Shown: piece by piece, positions 4,026 through 62,326 of the stretch
Position numbering within the stretch: the first letter of the stretch is position 1
Layout: each line of letters opens with the position of its first letter
Assembly: GCA_913051775.1 (NCBI GenBank)
Contig: CAJXCL010000003.1
Span: 3,492 to 67,491, forward strand
Length of the DNA stretch: 64,000 nucleotides
Source: an uncultured Nitrospirota bacterium
GTDB lineage: Bacteria > Nitrospinota > Nitrospinia > CAJXCL01
Direction: 5' to 3'
Program-made: the position numbers and the translations under genes
The notes under the pieces: model-generated
Told to the model about the DNA's origin: nothing
The model's input: the letters and a program-made list of their open reading frames with translations, nothing else
Database searches by the model: none

Positions 4026-5138
4026 ATGAAAAAAGGTTCTATCTATACTGTGGCAGGATGTGGAAAGATTGGCTCTGAGGGTGATGGGGGAGACGCAAAA
4101 TTGGCGATGTTGAATGAACCCAAGGATCTGACTATTGACAACAATGGCTGTTTGTATATAGCTGATTCAGAAAATAACCTGATCAGATTTGTAAATTCAA
4201 ATGGGTCTATTGATACCATCGCTGGTTCTATCACACTTTCTGAGACGGAGGAAGATAAAAAGGCTGATGAGACCGAATATCAACGCGTTCTCGATACAGT
4301 GCCGCGCAAAGCTGGGATGAATGCAGAGCTGATTGGCGATAATGGCGCGGCCATATCGGCAAAGCTTAGATTCCCATCTGCCATTGCTGTAGATCATGAT
4401 GGAAATCTCTATATTTCTGATACCCATAACCATAGGGTAAGAAAGATGAATAGAAAAAATGGTGTCATTACAACGATAGCAGGTAATGGCGATGACCAAT
4501 TGAGTGGTGACAATGGTCCTGCAACAGAAGCAAGCCTCTCAGAACCAACGGGTATAGCAATAGACCGGGAAGGGAACATATATATTGCTGATTTAAGAAA
4601 CAATAAGATCAGGATAGTTGAGAGAGCAAGCGGGATAATAAAGACTTTTGCCGGAAACGGTGATGATTATTTCAGCGGAGATGATGGACCGGCAGTTAAT
4701 GCCTCCCTCAGTGGCCCCAGCGGTATAGTTCTGGACAAAAATGAGAATATTTTTATTGCTGATACATTTAACAATGTCATCAGAAGGGTAGATGCAAATA
4801 CAGGTATTATAACTACTGTTGCCGGAGATGGTGATAGATTTAAAATTAATAAAAAGGAAACCACGGCTAATAGCCTTGCTCGCCCACATTCAATTGCATT
4901 GGATTCAAAAGGAAACATATACACCACTGACTCTGACAATCATTTGGTAAGAAAAATAGATGGGAACTCCGGTGAGATTACTAATGTAGCTGGAAATGGA
5001 ACGATAGGTTTTTCCACGGATGGAACACCGGCTCATGATGCCGCCCTTAATTATCCATTTGGCATGGCAATAGATTCAAAAGATAATGTATATGTTGCAG
5101 ACACTTTTAACCATAGAATAAGAAAAATATTCAATTAA
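4026..5138 (+). CDS. NHL-repeat beta-propeller protein, no signal peptide
   Basis: Six repeats of the form L..P.gia.D..GnlYiaDt.N..IRki with TvAG.G linkers. Confidence 0.92.
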   Translation: MKKGSIYTVAGCGKIGSEGDGGDAKLAMLNEPKDLTIDNNGCLYIADSENNLIRFVNSNGSIDTIAGSITLSETEEDKKADETEYQRVLDTVPRKAGMNAELIGDNGAAISAKLRFPSAIAVDHDGNLYISDTHNHRVRKMNRKNGVITTIAGNGDDQLSGDNGPATEASLSEPTGIAIDREGNIYIADLRNNKIRIVERASGIIKTFAGNGDDYFSGDDGPAVNASLSGPSGIVLDKNENIFIADTFNNVIRRVDANTGIITTVAGDGDRFKINKKETTANSLARPHSIALDSKGNIYTTDSDNHLVRKIDGNSGEITNVAGNGTIGFSTDGTPAHDAALNYPFGMAIDSKDNVYVADTFNHRIRKIFN

Positions 5139-5526
5139 GATGTACTTCTGAGTACGAAATCAAAAAAAGAGGTTAATTTTTTGAAACTCTATCAACTATC
5201 CAGAGTCTAATCAATAAGCTCCAAATTTTTTTCTTTTCTATCTTTTTTATTAGGGTTGTAGGATATAAAGTCCTGTAGCCCTTTTTTTTTGAAGTTTTTT
5301 ACTCTCATCGGGCTCGAGTCCCGTTGGAGCCAACTTTTGCTATCTAATTAGAAAATATGACTATTCCCATATTTATCTCCAATTAAAATAACACTCCTTA
5401 AATGCTCATATCTTTTTTTTTCTTGCGAGATAGCACCTATATACCAAATTTTTTAATAGTTTAGACAAGTTTTTTTATTGATATTTTTTTAAATATGGAT
5501 TATCTTAAAATTTGTAAAAAATTATT

Positions 5527-37544: not shown

Positions 37545-38018
37545 CTAACTTTCTTTAGAATCAAGTGGTAAAATTACTTCTAACATTGGATAACCAGTAT
37601 TAGTAATTATTGCAGCATTTTTCTGCGTTTGGATAGTATGAGTTTCGCCCGATGGGATTTCTGAATCAATGTCTATTGTATCTCCCTTGACGATATAAGC
37701 TCCGGCTAAATTCGGATCCAGGTTTGTGATCGTTAAGTCGTCGAGTCCTTCCGGGATATCAAAGGTCGACTCTTCACCAAGCCTCATTTTTCTCACCCTT
37801 ATTACCACGTCTAAGATTGGAGCCCCCAGGTTAATAACTTTCAGAGAACCATGATGGGTATGGACACGTTGGGTTTCACCCGGCTGGATTTTTCTGCTAC
37901 CTTGTGTTCTATCTCCTTTGACGGAATACAATCCTTCTGCTTCCGGATCCAAGTTTGTGATCGTTAAGTTGTCGTGTCCTTGTGGAATATCATAGGACTC
38001 TGTTTCGCTAAGCTTCAT
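37545..38018 (-). CDS. Hypothetical protein made of two tandem copies of an approximately 75-aa domain
   Basis: AAAGGAGG SD; M.L.E...DIP.G.D.LTITNLDP...G.Y.VKGD....I..GET......N.G.P.L.V occurs twice; DNA-level repeat TTTGTGATCGTTAAGT in both halves. Confidence 0.8.
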   Translation of the reverse strand: MKLSETESYDIPQGHDNLTITNLDPEAEGLYSVKGDRTQGSRKIQPGETQRVHTHHGSLKVINLGAPILDVVIRVRKMRLGEESTFDIPEGLDDLTITNLDPNLAGAYIVKGDTIDIDSEIPSGETHTIQTQKNAAIITNTGYPMLEVILPLDSKES

Positions 38019-38442
38019 GTGTATCCTCCTTTGTTTTTTTTAATATGTTAGAGAAATGTTATCTGATTAAAATCCTCAAAATAGGAATCCATTCTTTTTC
38101 AATATGCCTATAATGTGTTCCTCCTTCCCGATAACGCGACAACAAGCTGTCAAACTTTTAAACAAACTGCGAAAAAGCACAATAGATTCTTCCCTAGATT
38201 TAAAAATAACATAGCACATAAAACTTTCGATTAAAAGCTTGATGTTTTTTTTATTAGAATCAATTCACAGATTGTTTAAGAATCCATGATTTTTAGCAAA
38301 AACCTTATGGATGGCCTTTTATGCTGGTTTTACGATATACTTGATTTAGTTATTTGTGTTGACATTGCTAATTAGTGTGAAGGTGTTGCTGTTTTTGCTG
38401 TTGTTAAAGTTAGGCACTTTCCGTTAAAATCTAAATAACTAT

Positions 38443-40488: not shown

Positions 40489-40603
40489 CCTGAAAAATTA
40501 AGCCTTATTAATAATTATAATCCCTGTTTTCGTTAATAGATATGTATAACAAAATTTAAAATGTTACAATTATGTTTTATTAAAAGACGGAGGATTTTTA
40601 TAA

Positions 40604-40900
40604 ATGATTAGGCATATTGTGTTTTTTAAATTCAAGCCAGAGATCGCAGAGGAGCAAAAAAATAAACTCGTGGAAGATCTTAAAACATTAAAGAAAAAAA
40701 TACCTTTAATACAGCGGCTGGAGGTGGGATTTGATATTGGCAAGAAACCAAATTCATATGATATGGCGCTGAATACAGATTTTAATACACGGGAAGACGT
40801 AGAAAAATACAGCATTCACCCTGATCATGTTACTGTTGTAGTGTTTATCAAACAGATTTGTGAGGATGTTTGTAAAATTGATTATGAGGTTAATGATTAA
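40604..40900 (+). CDS. Dabb (stress-responsive alpha/beta barrel) protein
   Basis: MIRHIVFFKFK start, Y..HPDH and DYE motifs. Confidence 0.88.
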   Translation: MIRHIVFFKFKPEIAEEQKNKLVEDLKTLKKKIPLIQRLEVGFDIGKKPNSYDMALNTDFNTREDVEKYSIHPDHVTVVVFIKQICEDVCKIDYEVND

Positions 40901-40924
40901 TGAATTTAAAAATCTCGTTAGGAT

Positions 40925-42109
40925 ATGCCAATGGCTGTACTAAGGATAATCAGTATCAGCAGACGCGGAGATATCCCCGCATTTCATACCCCATGGTTGA
41001 TAAACAGACTGGGGGAAGGATATTGTCATTTTCAGACCCCTTACGGAGGGAAAATTCGAGAGGTTTCCTTAAAACCTGAAGATTGCGACGGCCTGGTATT
41101 CTGGACTCGAAATCCTTTTCCTCTGTTTAAGTACATTAATGAACTGAAAGATCGTGGGTATTGTTTTTATTTCCATTTTACAATTACCGGTTATCCAAAT
41201 CCTTTAGAATCACACACGCCTCCTCTCTTAAAGTCAATCGAACGATTTATAAACCTGTCGGAAAAAATAGGGTCGGAAGCTGTTCACTGGAGATATGATC
41301 CTGTTATCTTGAGCAGCCTGACTTCGGAAGCCTTTCACATAGAGAATTTTTCTTTTATAGCAAATAAACTCAAAAAAAGTACAGGGATATGCACTATTTC
41401 TTTTATCCAATTTTATGAAAAATCCCGTGGTAATTTTAAAAAAATCACTGAACAGCACGGAATTCGGTTTGACAATCCTTCTATGGAAAGAAAGATAAAA
41501 TTGGCAAAAACTTTGAAGGGAATAGCGGCAAAAAACGGAATAAATCTCAGGAGTTGTTGTGACAATTCCTTGCTGTCCGCGGGCATTCTGAAAGGAAGCT
41601 GCGTTGGCCCTGAATATCTTTCACTCATAAAGCGGCAAGTTGCCGCATCCACCATTAGGTATGGAAAGCCGAATTGGACGGCTTCTAGAGGAAAGCCGCC
41701 CGAAGGGTTGAGGCCATGGAAGGCAGAGCTAAGCTCAGCTTTGCCGATAATTAAATGGAGCTACCGCACCAACAAGCAAACAGAAAATTCTTTTAAGCTT
41801 TGCATAAGGCACTGTAAAAAACAAGAACTAACAGTGCCTAAAAAAAAGAAGCTTTTACAGTGTAATATTATAAAAACTGACTCCTATGGTAACTGGGAAA
41901 AAAGACCAACAAGAAAGGGGTGCGCCTGTTTCGAATCGGTTGATATAGGGACTTATGAAACCTGCACTTTCGGTTGTTGTTACTGCTATGCCACGCGCAG
42001 CAGAGAATCCGCGTTAAAACATCTTAAAAACTATGATAAAAACGACTCAATCCTTGTAAGACCCAAAAAATTTAACAATAAAAATATACGATTTACTAAT
42101 GCCGATTGA
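40925..42109 (+). CDS. DUF1848 family protein carrying an in-frame repeat insertion
   Basis: ISISRRGDIPAF, VFWTRNP, FTITGY, WRYDP and C.C..S.DIGTYETCTFGCCYCYA motifs; about 80 extra codons derived from repeat family A. Confidence 0.85.
   Translation: MPMAVLRIISISRRGDIPAFHTPWLINRLGEGYCHFQTPYGGKIREVSLKPEDCDGLVFWTRNPFPLFKYINELKDRGYCFYFHFTITGYPNPLESHTPPLLKSIERFINLSEKIGSEAVHWRYDPVILSSLTSEAFHIENFSFIANKLKKSTGICTISFIQFYEKSRGNFKKITEQHGIRFDNPSMERKIKLAKTLKGIAAKNGINLRSCCDNSLLSAGILKGSCVGPEYLSLIKRQVAASTIRYGKPNWTASRGKPPEGLRPWKAELSSALPIIKWSYRTNKQTENSFKLCIRHCKKQELTVPKKKKLLQCNIIKTDSYGNWEKRPTRKGCACFESVDIGTYETCTFGCCYCYATRSRESALKHLKNYDKNDSILVRPKKFNNKNIRFTNAD
41630..41876 (+). repeat. Dispersed multi-hairpin repeat family A, copy 1 (inside the DUF1848 CDS)
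   Basis: GCGGCAAGTTGCCGC...GGTATGGAAAGCCGAATTGGACGG...CCGCCCGAAGGGTTGAGGCCATGGAAGGCAGAGC...AAGCTTTTACAGTGTAATATTATAA; ends approximate. Confidence 0.85.
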
Positions 42110-42172
42110 CGAATAAAAAAAATAATTTACAAACTGCACATTTTTAATCTCAAATCTAAAACCTAAAATCAT

Positions 42173-42347
42173 AAAGCGGAGAGGCTCCTCAACCACAATT
42201 CGGCATGGAGAGCCGAACTGGACGGATGTTTTTGCAATCCGCCCGAAGGGTTGAGGCCATGGAAGGCCGAAATCAAATGGAGCTTCTGCTCCGGTGAGCA
42301 AAAAAAACTTGTTCAAAAAACAAGCTTTTATATAGTGATAGTATAAA
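42173..42347 (+). repeat. Repeat family A, copy 2
   Basis: AAAGCGGAG...CAACCACAATTCGGCATGGAGAGCCGAACTGGACGG...CCGCCCGAAGGGTTGAGGCCATGGAAGGCCGAAATCAAATGGAGC...AAAAAACAAGCTTTTATATAGTGATAGTATAA. Confidence 0.85.
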
Positions 42348-42399
42348 TCGTCGATTAGTTGCAATCGAATTGAGAAATTTTAGCCGCAATATTAGAAAA

Positions 42400-43128
42400 T
42401 CATAACATTAAAAATATCATCAAAGTTAATGCTTCTATTATCTCATTGATAAATCCAAAATGGTCGCCGGTAATCTTTCCAAATGAATTTAATAAAAATT
42501 GATAAATCATGGTTGTAAAAATAGCAATTCCAATTAAAGCAGTTAAGCCTATAATATCAAAAAGATAGATTACGATTAAGCAAGGTAGGATAGATGACAG
42601 GATGAAATGTTTTTCTTTTATCTGTTTCTGAAATTTACTCCCCAGGCCGATATGTTTCATCTGGATGCTATAAAGAATAGTCAGCACCATTGTCCAACGG
42701 CTTGCCATAGGAAACACCAGGAGGGCGTATATCTTTGTACTTTGTTCGATAAAGGCGATTGAATTATATTTTAATAATACAAGAAAGATTACAGATATGG
42801 CACCCATGGTTCCTATATGGCTGTCTTTCATGACCTTCAGTTTTTCTTTCGGGGATTTTACACATCCCAGTCCATCAAATGTATCGGCAAAACCATCGAT
42901 ATGCAGACCCCTGGTAATTAGGGTTAAGAAAGCAACCTGAATAATAGCGGTAATATCAATCGGTAGAAATGGAGAAAGGCAGTATTCCAACCCTGCCAAC
43001 CCCGCCCCGAGAGTAAGACCGACTAAAGGGAAGTAGATAGTAGATTCAGCCAATAATTCCTGTCGAAAGCTTTTTACTTTTAAAGGTAGTATGGTAAGAA
43101 ACTGAAAAGCAGTAATAATTTTATTCAT
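42400..43128 (-). CDS. cobS: Adenosylcobinamide-GDP ribazoletransferase
   Basis: AFQFLTILP, YFPLVG, GLHIDGFADTFDG, MKDSHIGTMG and GKITGDHFG motifs. Confidence 0.92.
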   Translation of the reverse strand: MNKIITAFQFLTILPLKVKSFRQELLAESTIYFPLVGLTLGAGLAGLEYCLSPFLPIDITAIIQVAFLTLITRGLHIDGFADTFDGLGCVKSPKEKLKVMKDSHIGTMGAISVIFLVLLKYNSIAFIEQSTKIYALLVFPMASRWTMVLTILYSIQMKHIGLGSKFQKQIKEKHFILSSILPCLIVIYLFDIIGLTALIGIAIFTTMIYQFLLNSFGKITGDHFGFINEIIEALTLMIFLML

Positions 43129-43787: not shown

Positions 43788-44261
43788 AAAAGAACTTCCT
43801 CTAAAGACTGGTCTGTAGACAAGTCTTTAGGATTTTGTGTTTGGTGTCAATCTCTATTAAAAAAGTGAAGGGATTGAGAATATACAATATAAAGCACAGA
43901 TTTTTATAAGTCAAAACTATGATATTAACTTAATCTTGCATGATAAATTTTTTAAAAATTGTTAATCATAATATTCATAACCCAATAGATTAAGTTTTTT
44001 TAGGGATAATATTCTCGGAAACACATATAACTTCTAAGAAAAAACTCCTTTTAAAAATTTATCATGCAAGATTGAGGTATTAACTCATTGTCCTTAACCA
44101 TGAATATGTGTTATGAGTATAATATATCTGAACCAGTCATAACCTGTTCGTACTGTAATAAAGAAATTCCTCTCACTGAAGCAATTTCCCATAAAATGCT
44201 GGAAAAACTGCAAAAGGAATTTTAGGGTCAGGCTAAAAAAATAGAAAAAGATGCAAAATAA

Positions 44262-48832: not shown

Positions 48833-49465
48833 TTAATATGTAAATTGAACCAACTTGCGTTTTTCATTATCTTTAATTATTAATCGCTGTTTTTTAGATA
48901 TAAACTCGTTGTGCCACGTTTCTATTTCAAATTCTCCTTTAGGCACTTTTTTAATGGTAAAGTTTCCTTTTTTATCAACACTTGAAAAAAAGGGATTCTG
49001 AAGAACTAAAATAAAGCCCCTTAATTCCTGATGAATATCACACAAAAGCATAACTTCCCCCCCCTCGGAGAACTTAATAGGACCATATTTGGTGTTTGCC
49101 GGAATTCCAAAGTTGAATGAAATTGGACCACCTGTTGCTGTATGCAGGTTATGAAAGTGTGGATCTTCATTGGAAAAAATTACCTCTCTCTCTCTTGCGA
49201 TGGGAAGCACCTGAGGAATAACCTGATTATTCTTTTGAACATTCAATACTGTTTCTTTGGGTAAGCTAAAGAGTTTATTATCAACATATTTAATGTATAC
49301 GACAAAGTTCTCGAATTGATCTATACGATTTGAAACAATTCTACCTTCAACAGTAGCCGACAGGCACTCGGGAACAGCTCCCAGCCCTGGCATAATAACA
49401 GTAAAAATGATTAGTAATATTCGACTTATATGTTGCTTCATAAATAAAGCGATAAGTTGCCGCAA
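48833..49465 (-). CDS. Exported cupredoxin-like plus carboxypeptidase-regulatory-like domain protein
   Basis: Signal peptide; F.NEDPHFHN, CDIH (Cu-ligand-type C-x2-H) and GNFTIKKVPKGEFEIETWH motifs. Confidence 0.75.
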   Translation of the reverse strand: MRQLIALFMKQHISRILLIIFTVIMPGLGAVPECLSATVEGRIVSNRIDQFENFVVYIKYVDNKLFSLPKETVLNVQKNNQVIPQVLPIAREREVIFSNEDPHFHNLHTATGGPISFNFGIPANTKYGPIKFSEGGEVMLLCDIHQELRGFILVLQNPFFSSVDKKGNFTIKKVPKGEFEIETWHNEFISKKQRLIIKDNEKRKLVQFTY

Positions 49466-49600
49466 TCACAACTTGGCATGGAGAACCAAATTGGACCGAC
49501 ATACTTGCGGTTCGCCCGAAGGGTTGAGGCTATGGATGGCAGAGCTAGGTTTTGCCGAAATCAAATAAGACTGCCGCCCTGGAGAACCAACAAAAATAAA
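49446..49600 (+). repeat. Repeat family A, copy 3
   Basis: AAAGCGATAAGTTGCCGCAATCACAACTTGGCATGGAGAACCAAATTGGACCG...TCGCCCGAAGGGTTGAGGCTATGGATGGCAGAGC...TTTGCCGAAATCAAAT...CCGCCCTGGAGAACCA. Confidence 0.85.
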
Positions 49601-56380: not shown

Positions 56381-56540
56381 ATTAAAAAACTTTGGAATAA
56401 TAATTAATAGCCATGAAATGGCGTTACTAAAATATTTTACCCTTCCAAGGGTAAAATATCATTAATGATTCTTTTTTTCTAAAGGACTAAACGATTTTGA
56501 AGCAAAGTATACTTCAAATTATGAAAATAATCATCTTTTT

Positions 56541-56667
56541 AATTTTGACTTTCCATGCCCTCGACCCTTCGGGCGGCTTTCCATTGGGGAACCGTTCAAT
56601 TTTATCATTGTGATAAAGTTATGACTATCAGTTTTCCTTGCCGAATGGTGGTTGAGGTCCTGCCGCA
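56541..56667 (-). repeat. Repeat family A, copy 4 (degenerate)
   Basis: Minus strand GCGGCAGGACCTCAACCACCATTCGGCAAGGAAA...GGAAAGCCGCCCGAAGGGTCGAGGGCATGGAAAG. Confidence 0.75.
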
Positions 56668-56720
56668 CTGAGAAAAATAATTATTTTAATTCTCTCTGAG
56701 GTTTTTGCATTACAAGTTTA

Positions 56721-61295: not shown

Positions 61296-61564
61296 TTCCA
61301 AAGGAAAACATTATCAAAATTCTTAAAAAGATCAAAGACCCGGAATCAGAACAGTCTCTATACGATCTTCAAATCGTGAAGCATATAGATTATAAAGAAG
61401 AGGAAAAAGAACTGATAATTACCCTTGATTTCAACAGGAGAATGCCGAACTGTATAGGCTGCAAACCGGTAGCTTGGATGGTGCAGAAGAAAATTGCAGA
61501 ATATCTCGAAAATGATTTTTTTGAATTTGAAGAAGTAAAACAGATAGATTTTAAATACTCATAA
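61292..61564 (+). CDS. DUF59/FeS-assembly-P-like small protein with CxxC
   Basis: LKKIKDPE....LYDLQIV motif; PNCIGC; 4-nt overlap with the ArsA gene. Confidence 0.7.
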   Translation: MIPKENIIKILKKIKDPESEQSLYDLQIVKHIDYKEEEKELIITLDFNRRMPNCIGCKPVAWMVQKKIAEYLENDFFEFEEVKQIDFKYS

Positions 61565-61658
61565 TACGGCATGTTGCCGCAACCACATAGGCTTCCGCCC
61601 TGGAGAACCATCAAAAAAACTTTTTCAAAAAACAAGTTTTTACAGAGCAATAGTATAA
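61565..61658 (+). repeat. Repeat family A, copy 5 (internally deleted)
   Basis: ACGGCATGTTGCCGCAACCACA joined to GCTTCCGCCCTGGAGAACCA...AAAAAACAAGTTTTTACAGAGCAATAGTATAA. Confidence 0.75.
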
Positions 61659-62326
61659 TGGAATCCATTAAGAAATCAGTTATCAGGGATCACTCGACCT
61701 GTCCCTTATGTAAAAAAAATAATTCTACACTCTTTTGTAAAGAGCAACACCGCTCCTACTTTCAATGTCCTTGTTGCAGTCTTCTTTATGTCCCTTCTTG
61801 CCACCATTTGTCCCCCGTGGAAGAAAAAAAGAGGTACGATACCCATACCAATCATCCTGACGATCCTGAATATCGGGATTTTTTGAACAGGCTTGTTAGC
61901 CCGTTACTTCCTTATCTCCCAACAGGAGGAAAAGGAATCGACTATGGATCGGGCCCGGGCCCCACACTCTCTCTCATGTTTTCTGAATTTGGTTTTCATA
62001 TGAAAGATTATGACCCATTTTACGCTAACTATAATAAGGTATTAGAGGAAGAATACGATTTTCTCACCTGCTCAGAGACCATGGAACACTTTAGTAATCC
62101 TAAAGAGGAGTGGGAACTTTTTCTCAAGCTAGTCAAAAGGGGAGGGTGGATAGGAATAATGACCCAACTTTATGAACGAGAGATCGATTTTTCCCAATGG
62201 TATTATAAAAATGACCCCACTCATGTTTCATTTTATTCAAAAGAGACTTTCAAATGGCTGGCAGAAGAATATAATCTGAGGCTTTTGTTTGGAGAACAAT
62301 CTGTGGTATTTTTTCAACGGATTTAA
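61658..62326 (+). CDS. Class I SAM-dependent methyltransferase with N-terminal Zn ribbon (alternative start 61571)
   Basis: CPLC...CPCC, RYDTH.N, DYGSGPGP, YDPFY, SETMEHF and YKNDPTHVSFY motifs. Confidence 0.9.
   Translation: MESIKKSVIRDHSTCPLCKKNNSTLFCKEQHRSYFQCPCCSLLYVPSCHHLSPVEEKKRYDTHTNHPDDPEYRDFLNRLVSPLLPYLPTGGKGIDYGSGPGPTLSLMFSEFGFHMKDYDPFYANYNKVLEEEYDFLTCSETMEHFSNPKEEWELFLKLVKRGGWIGIMTQLYEREIDFSQWYYKNDPTHVSFYSKETFKWLAEEYNLRLLFGEQSVVFFQRI

Follow-up and report, generated by a model that had tools for sequence, protein, structure and literature searches.

An in-frame family A repeat within a Nitrospinota DUF1848 gene: a probable read-through insertion with empty, filled and disrupted alleles

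BOX elements have the architecture A-B(n)-C, and both BOX and BIME are essentially intergenic, while REPs are linked to RAYT transposases. Rickettsia palindromic elements (RPEs) have been identified as insertions in 44 genes of R. conorii, where the in-gene copies are read through and the added peptide is thought to be compatible with the fold of the host protein (PMC10969869). In-frame fusions with host open reading frames (ORFs), or extensions of these, are also documented for intragenic ERIC/RU, large BOX and the QMITEs of Coxiella (PMC10969869; PMC5896051; PMC2759123). The present work concerns a repeat, termed family A, in a Nitrospinota genome (GCA_913051775.1), within a stretch of 64,000 nucleotides of contig CAJXCL010000003.1 referred to below as the window. 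One copy of this repeat lies in frame and free of stops inside a DUF1848 gene (ORF 40925-42109), as had been proposed in an earlier note made from the sequence alone, and the peptide quoted in that note was matched exactly. It is probably an RPE-like read-through insertion which is tolerated, rather than exapted or removed. The earlier note had offered all three options, and a tolerated insertion fits best, the other two having gained no positive support.

The window protein matches PF08902 (DUF1848) with a score of 279 bits (E-value 6.4e-83) in a Pfam search at the gathering score, the cut-off being 30.5, and this match is broken into two stretches by the insert, of which the first aligns residues 8-236 with positions 1-225 of the 262 in the profile. 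A search of a large protein collection returned 506 homologues, of which 121 were aligned. Counted from the invariant C226 to the invariant R330, 104 of these 121 have a spacing of 22 residues and 117 one of 17-28 residues, and spacings of 69 or 103 occur solely in four insert carriers, namely the window protein and homologues P0001, P0002 and P0003. The extra segment is therefore real, as the linker is short in 117 of the 121 and long in insert carriers alone. The statement in the earlier note that this linker is short thus holds, and the counter-example which it had named, an equally long linker without the repeat, is absent among the 121 homologues. The extra 81 codons are placed between GPEYLSL and KTDS, with the quoted peptide sitting between GSCVGPEYLSL and TDSYGNWEKRPTRKGCACFESVDIG. 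Every residue that is invariant among the homologues is retained by the window protein, including C211, C226, C333, C335, C347, C351 and C354. The last five of these make up a C-terminal cysteine cluster (CX3CX2C-like) which, as claimed previously, remains in frame downstream of the insert with all of its invariant cysteines present. With regard to the function of the host, NCBIfam searches with both filled and empty proteins gave nothing, a sequence search of the PDB with an empty orthologue as query found no solved relative, Foldseek gave weak generic TIM-barrel matches alone (template-modelling score, TM, 0.2-0.3), and the DUF1848 literature was uninformative.

The gene order Dabb-DUF1848-CobS is common to all contigs encoding the closest homologues, and the loci are therefore regarded as orthologous. 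The linker is short and the site empty in orthologues that share 88-91% amino-acid identity. In contigs L004 and L026 (91% amino-acid identity) this site reads ...TTTCACTT-TTAAA-AACTGAT..., the flank of the empty allele being CACTT-TTAAA-AACTG, and L001-L003 and L027 are also empty with 12 further nt absent. At the same point, contigs L005 and L006 possess an insert of 141 nt, and the window and L007 one of 243 nt (81 codons), the filled alleles reading CACT(C/T)-ATAAA-GCGG...ATT-ATAAA-AACTG. By DNA alignment with the empty L004, the net insertion amounts to 243 nt at 41632-41874, one ATAAA copy being counted. The extent given earlier (41630-41876, about 80 extra codons) was right to within a few bases, and the alignment with orthologues that was suggested at the time yields this 243-nt gap with ATAAA on both sides. 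The long form consists of the 141-nt short form plus a discrete block of 102 nt (41652-41753), and 243, 141 and 102 are all divisible by three.

A target-site duplication is seen at two sites, with ATAAA on either side of the in-gene copy and of a second copy (copy 2) in the DUF1848-CobS spacer, and a single (T/G)TAAA at the empty sites. For copy 2 the comparison is with the empty spacer of L006 (AAAATC-GTAAA-TCGTC), against which ATAAA again appears on both sides of the element. The duplication is 4 or 5 bp in length, as filled and empty alleles disagree at its first base. A metagenome scan for close DUF1848 relatives added two more close alleles, both of them empty.

The window insert has no stops in the host frame and between one and seven in each of the other five frames, while a shuffled insert was stop-free in one frame in 0.4% of shuffles. 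The host frame is without stops in every filled allele, short and long, whereas typical intergenic copies of the repeat have one or two stops in the equivalent frame, an example being the TAA in the loop GGTAAGG of an intergenic copy, where the in-gene copy has TAT. The surviving in-gene copy is therefore one that happens to be readable. Among the approximately 35 family A instances examined, the DUF1848 copies alone sit inside a long gene. A protein search with the insert peptide for other host genes returned one further DUF1848 allele and nothing else, although this type of search needs shared exact words, missed even P0001-P0003 and is not exhaustive.

With the alignment of 121 sequences as input, AlphaFold2 modelled the window protein with a mean predicted local distance difference test score (pLDDT) of 83 and a predicted TM score (pTM) of 0.80. 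Most of the host body scored above 90, and residues 250-315 scored below 50 with no confident structure. The insert is thus modelled as an unstructured loop off an intact fold, at the linker before the CX3CX2C motif, in agreement with the surface loop for which structure prediction had been suggested. The insert peptide of 81 residues, which ends in ...CNIIK, gave nothing in Pfam at E-values up to 10.

The course of events that these features would fit begins with a modular, hairpin-rich, non-coding repeat inserting at ATAAA and duplicating this pentanucleotide. The site would lie within the Ile-Lys codons of the linker, which normally has 22 residues and leads from the barrel-like body to the C-terminal CX3CX2C motif. 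As the insert is stop-free in the host frame, the ribosome would read straight through it, and the product would carry 81 additional residues, rich in Lys/Arg and probably forming a disordered loop, while the host fold and its invariant residues stay intact. [quoted passage not shown] The features concerned are listed in Table 1.

Table 1. Positions in the window of the DUF1848 gene, its family A insert and the other family A copies
Feature	Position	Strand	Description	Basis
DUF1848 gene with insert	40925..42109	+	394 residues; homologues begin at ATG 40931	ORF list, Pfam, synteny
A7 homopolymer in gene	41431..41437	+	A8 (+1 frameshift) in sister contigs	
Family A element	41627..41874	+	Includes both ATAAA copies	Filled/empty DNA alignment; module map HEAD-CORE-TAIL-END
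Left ATAAA	41627..41631	+	Target-site duplication	Filled versus empty alleles
Head hairpin	41632..41646	+	GCGGCAAGTTGCCGC, then A(T/A)CCAC(C/A)A	Fold
Core	41652..41753	+	102 nt (34 codons), in the long allele and not in the short; most conserved motif of the family CGCCCGAAGGGTTGAGGCCATGGA	
Neck hairpin	41757..41770	+	GGAGC-TACC-GCACC; perfect GGAGC/GCTCC in L005 and L006	Sequence read
Tail	41796..41869	+	Hairpin AGGCACTGT...ACAGTGCCT (41807-41839), then A-run, AAGCTTTT, ACAGTGTAATATT	Inverted repeats I1, I2; TAILHP and END matches
Right ATAAA	41870..41874	+	Target-site duplication	Filled versus empty alleles
Hypothetical junction after removal			From an empty form of the filled allele: ...CTTTCACT joined to AAAACTGAC	
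Copy 2	42171..42347	+	In the spacer between DUF1848 and CobS; oriented as the in-gene copy and 544 nt downstream of it	
Copy 3	49444..49600	+	Head, core and neck; no tail	
Copy 4	56538..56700	-	Core with internal insertion; degenerate	
Copy 5	61561..61659	+	Short form without core; ATAAT both sides	

The modules of family A follow a collinear order, this being the head hairpin (GCGGCAAGTTGCCGC) with AACCACA, an optional core, the neck hairpin, tail units and an A/T-rich end (...GAAGTTTTTACAGTGTAATAGTATAAA). As in modular mosaics of the BOX/BIME type, the units HEAD, CORE, NECK, TAILHP(n) and END are collinear across loci, with the core present or absent and the tail hairpin units (GCTTTGCATAAGGCGCTGT ... 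ACAGCGCCTAA) numbering from none to more than six per copy. Copies range from 99 to 433 nt. The window has five of them (four possessing the core, and copy 5 without it), and the fetched loci together have about 35 instances. The motif that is most conserved in the family (CGCCCGAAGGGTYGAGGNNATGGA) is found four times in the window, none being expected by chance. No Pfam match was obtained for the in-frame translation of the in-gene copy, in keeping with a small, non-coding, multi-copy element. The short head-neck junction (AACCA-AATGG) of the short DUF1848 alleles is also present in an unrelated copy in L006, which marks the short form as a subfamily and the core as a module that is discrete.

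As a single strand the in-gene element folds well (z about -3.2), and a 16-copy alignment analysed with RNAalifold gave a consensus structure for the core with 25 pairs, six of which are changed on both sides. When the alignment is read by eye, the head stem also seems to be maintained elsewhere in the family through paired changes, such as GCGGAGAGGCTCCTC in copy 2, and AGGGC/GCCCT at the neck of other copies would be two paired changes, neither of these stems being in the RNAalifold consensus. Terminal inverted repeats were not detected at 41610-41895 with a 6-nt seed, which gave internal hairpins alone with the ends unpaired. Searched against Rfam 15 at the gathering score, the whole window gave two tRNAs alone and no family for the repeat, and at E-values up to 10 the region 41500-42450 gave chance-level sRNA and miRNA matches alone. 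A terminator and promoter scan of the insert gave nothing notable, and a role for the tail as an internal terminator is unsupported accordingly.

A scan of one genome per species found 18 loci with the core, of which 11 are titled Nitrospinota, three are in one metagenome-assembled genome (MAG) and one is in a 'Proteobacteria' MAG, while no copies of the core were found in viral contigs. The public copies that were found thus belong nearly all to Nitrospinota. No transposase was seen beside the copies in the window, whose flanks are ordinary chromosomal genes, whole genomes not having been searched. We conclude that family A is a non-autonomous mobile repeat which duplicates a 4-5-bp A/T-rich target, and it appears to be undescribed.

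A number of individual copies have further features. In contig L013 (region 4761-5200), from a Nitrospinota genome, a headless core (CAATTCGGCAGG...CGCCCGAAGGGTTGAGGCCATGGA...) starts right after the CCA end of a tmRNA gene (4761-5118, tag ANDYEYALAA) identified with ARAGORN. In ordinary copies the core comes after a GC hairpin ending in AACCA/ACCACA, which resembles a T-arm and acceptor end, and tRNA-like 3' ends may be what the core targets, derives from or mimics. Copy 5 begins where a small ORF upstream of it ends in TAA, and is open in one frame from ATG 61571, in its head hairpin, into a methyltransferase gene (ORF 61571-62326). The start of this gene is ambiguous; the likely one is ATG 61658, at the 3' end of the copy, and the longest ORF would gain 29 residues encoded by copy 5 at the N-terminus. 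Tail arrays of a 19-nt unit (GCTTTGCATAAGNCGCNGT) are present at L020:1-110, L012:2420-2540 and L013:2210-2470, at least six such units following one another head to tail where L020 ends, and a nested extra block (...CAAGTCTTCGCAGCTACTCTCC...GGGCGAATCTGCGGAGC...) lies inside some copies (L008, L015 and L019). In this sense, smaller units that move or recombine are nested within family A. A lone minimal core motif (GCGCCCGAAGGGTTGAGGCCATGGATGGCCGAGATA) at L014:1742-1912, in unrelated surroundings within the Proteobacteria-labelled MAG, could be due to mis-binning, to horizontal transfer or to a shorter functional motif of wider spread. The window also contains a 125-nt direct pair at 37676-38031 (231 nt apart, 73% identical), which has no relation to family A, and a 34-nt inverted repeat at 43923-44082 (88% complementary), which lies in the spacer past CobS and has 92 nt between its arms.

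With the insert left out, the host gene shows a ratio of non-synonymous to synonymous divergence (dN/dS) of 0.15-0.17, at dS 0.30-0.55, among the lineages of the window, L005 and L006. Comparisons between empty alleles give 0.2-0.3, so the insert-bearing values are no higher. If one insertion predates the split of these lineages, the insert-bearing gene has been kept under purifying selection.

Several points weigh against a passively tolerated insertion. Translation through the insert is deduced from the open frame, and the length of the linker is strongly conserved, such that 81 residues beside an Fe-S motif could well impair the enzyme. The dS of the insert is 0.04-0.07 as against 0.30-0.55 at host synonymous sites, and L005 and L006 share 138 of the 141 nt of their insert as against 84.7% in the remaining gene. 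Such low divergence would not be predicted for a passively tolerated loop, and needs gene conversion from family copies, later spread of the insert or constraint on its nucleotide sequence. In the case of a late spread, dN/dS is no measure of selection after the insertion. Finally, about a quarter of the contigs of the long-insert lineage carry disrupted alleles, which would also fit a protein inactivated by the insert.

As for the low divergence, dN is about equal to dS within the insert, with few changes behind the figure, and nothing therefore points to constraint on the peptide. The private variants which the in-gene copy of L005 has in common with another copy 1.2 kb away suggest homogenisation by gene conversion among family copies. 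Differences between L005 and L006 start immediately outside both insert junctions; transfer of the insert between the two by homologous recombination together with its flanks is unsupported, as the flanks diverge at both junctions at once.

The foremost rival to a tolerated insertion is that the insert has already inactivated the enzyme, the frame being open merely for lack of time and the window gene being an early pseudogene. This is unlikely, yet broken forms of the gene occur in near-identical strains. The A8 allele, present on eight contigs (L038-L040 among them) that otherwise match the window completely or nearly so, splits the DUF1848 gene into ORFs of 173 and 231 residues, L038 otherwise having no substitutions relative to the window over approximately 1.9 kb; the change from A7 to A8 could be pseudogenisation or homopolymer slippage. 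A deletion of 41722-42265, found on at least four contigs (L036, L037 and those of P0130 and P0124), fuses the in-gene copy to copy 2 within their cores. At 544 bp it is the same as the direct-repeat spacing of these two copies, and it takes out the whole C-terminal cysteine motif of DUF1848. This is repeat-mediated gene loss, for which the repeat pair supplies one route. L036, in which the deletion junction region lies at 1420-1600, also has the nonsense change R189* as well as C226S, with 12 non-synonymous versus 8 synonymous changes. Some of the P0130 and P0124 deletion alleles are in addition without 27 nt in the core (RYGKP-PEGLRPW), a loss which fits two GGAAAGCCG direct repeats 27 nt apart (41663-41671 and 41690-41698) and looks like slippage within the element. 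As near-identical strains carry a deletion, frameshift or nonsense change, the DUF1848 gene appears to be dispensable or decaying in this lineage. Inactivation by the insert would be in line with these alleles, with the substitution counts in L036 and with a linker of exactly 22 residues in most homologues. However, the intact long allele is the commonest form, its 90%-identity cluster having 44 members with the intact protein on at least 33 contigs, and the three insert-bearing lineages (dS 0.3-0.55) keep the frame and the invariant residues at the low dN/dS given above. The host fold is also retained in the AlphaFold2 model.

That family A may be a functional structured RNA or DNA module, and not a passive selfish repeat, is judged distinctly unlikely. 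If true, a core that targets or mimics tRNA-like 3' ends, or an in-gene copy that is processed out of the mRNA or regulates it, would represent a bacterial intervening or regulatory element of a kind not yet described. It is likewise improbable that the insert in DUF1848 has been recruited, either as a basic loop that brings three additional cysteines close to the Fe-S motif (e.g. for nucleic-acid binding) or as an embedded RNA/DNA element. Recruitment could account for the insert being kept in three diverged lineages and diverging about 5-10 times less than host synonymous sites do, for the lack of co-conservation in the immediate flanks, which argues against simple transfer by homologous recombination, and for hairpins maintained by paired changes across the family. 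Against this, dN approximates dS in the insert (again from few changes), the AlphaFold2 model gives it no structure but disorder, and the gene is decaying or lost in sister strains. Close orthologues manage without the insert, and its sharing of sequence with copies in the same genome suggests homogenisation over selection at the site.

Removal of the segment before the mature protein is formed, whether by RNA splicing, DNA excision between the ATAAA repeats, ribosome bypassing or protein splicing, is very improbable, and no positive support for removal from the DNA, RNA or protein was obtained. The strong single-strand structure (z about -3.2), the 5-nt direct repeats that flank the segment and its conservation at the nucleotide level are what could be said for it. 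Yet no group I or group II intron or ribozyme match was found in Rfam at E-values up to 10, and the segment is under the size of known self-splicing introns. Pfam identified no Hint/intein or other domain, and the segment is shorter than known inteins and ends in Asn-Ile-Ile-Lys, not in the usual His-Asn. That the insert, the short form and the core difference are all in frame and stop-free argues mildly against removal, which would not impose such a constraint. The flanks of empty and filled alleles are about 10% different near the site, which rules out the empty alleles as recent precise excisions.

Misplacement of the repeat in the gene by an assembler is hardly credible, even with a source that is probably a MAG and mosaic haplotypes at the locus, because at least 33 contigs bear the identical long allele, its junctions are the same in many independent NCBI, JGI and ENA assemblies with contigs of up to 94.9 kb, and these junctions recur in the short-form alleles of diverged lineages.

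The mosaic haplotypes are apparent on comparison of window positions 40600-42400 with L004, L007 and L026. The window is identical to the empty L004 throughout the upstream gene and the initial part of DUF1848, and to L007 from approximately 400 nt upstream of the insert onward, while L007 is identical to the empty L026 in the initial part. Each of the four possible pairings of a 5' with a 3' haplotype is thus represented, with the switch about 400 nt upstream of the insert, and these pairings reflect either population recombination or chimeric contigs.

Among known systems, inteins and self-splicing introns resemble this locus in being an extra segment within a conserved gene with the downstream part in frame. 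They differ in that the insert is without a Hint domain or an intron or ribozyme covariance-model match and is far too small. For inteins, neither the Hint domain blocks nor a terminal His-Asn followed by Cys/Ser/Thr were found, and the 81 residues compare with about 130 or more; for group I/II introns and small ribozymes, no covariance model of Rfam 15 gave a match. [quoted passage not shown] Family A is nevertheless not a MITE in the strict sense, as it lacks terminal inverted repeats, the defining feature of these elements. Its architecture is closest to modular mosaics such as BOX of Streptococcus pneumoniae or BIME/REP of the enterobacteria, with which it has in common fixed end modules, variable internal hairpin units and optional modules, but to which it has no sequence similarity.

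In behaviour the insert is most readily set beside the RPEs, the parallel drawn in the earlier note, which is apt for how the insert behaves and is not a family assignment. Both are small (about 100-250 bp), hairpin-forming and non-coding, and are found between genes as well as in frame inside conserved genes, and here too an in-frame, stop-free insertion in a conserved protein gene is accompanied by a predicted host fold that is preserved. No relationship to RPEs in sequence is evident, family A not having been compared with RPE sequences. RPEs belong to the Alphaproteobacteria and family A to the Nitrospinota; RPEs have many host genes, whereas one was found for family A among its approximately 35 instances; and family A is modular with a 5-bp ATAAA duplication. 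What is new is accordingly the repeat family, the phylum and the host gene, the kind of event being already known from RPEs and others. Repeat read-through in conserved genes is thereby extended to a free-living marine nitrite-oxidiser phylum, and, for annotation, Nitrospinota DUF1848 proteins of about 390 residues are to be seen as repeat-bearing alleles and not as a new domain architecture. The main added value lies in the allelic series, since public metagenomes keep the whole of it at one site, from the empty through the short and long forms to loss by deletion, frameshift or nonsense change, and so provide a compact natural example of an insertion arising, being tolerated and then destabilising its gene.

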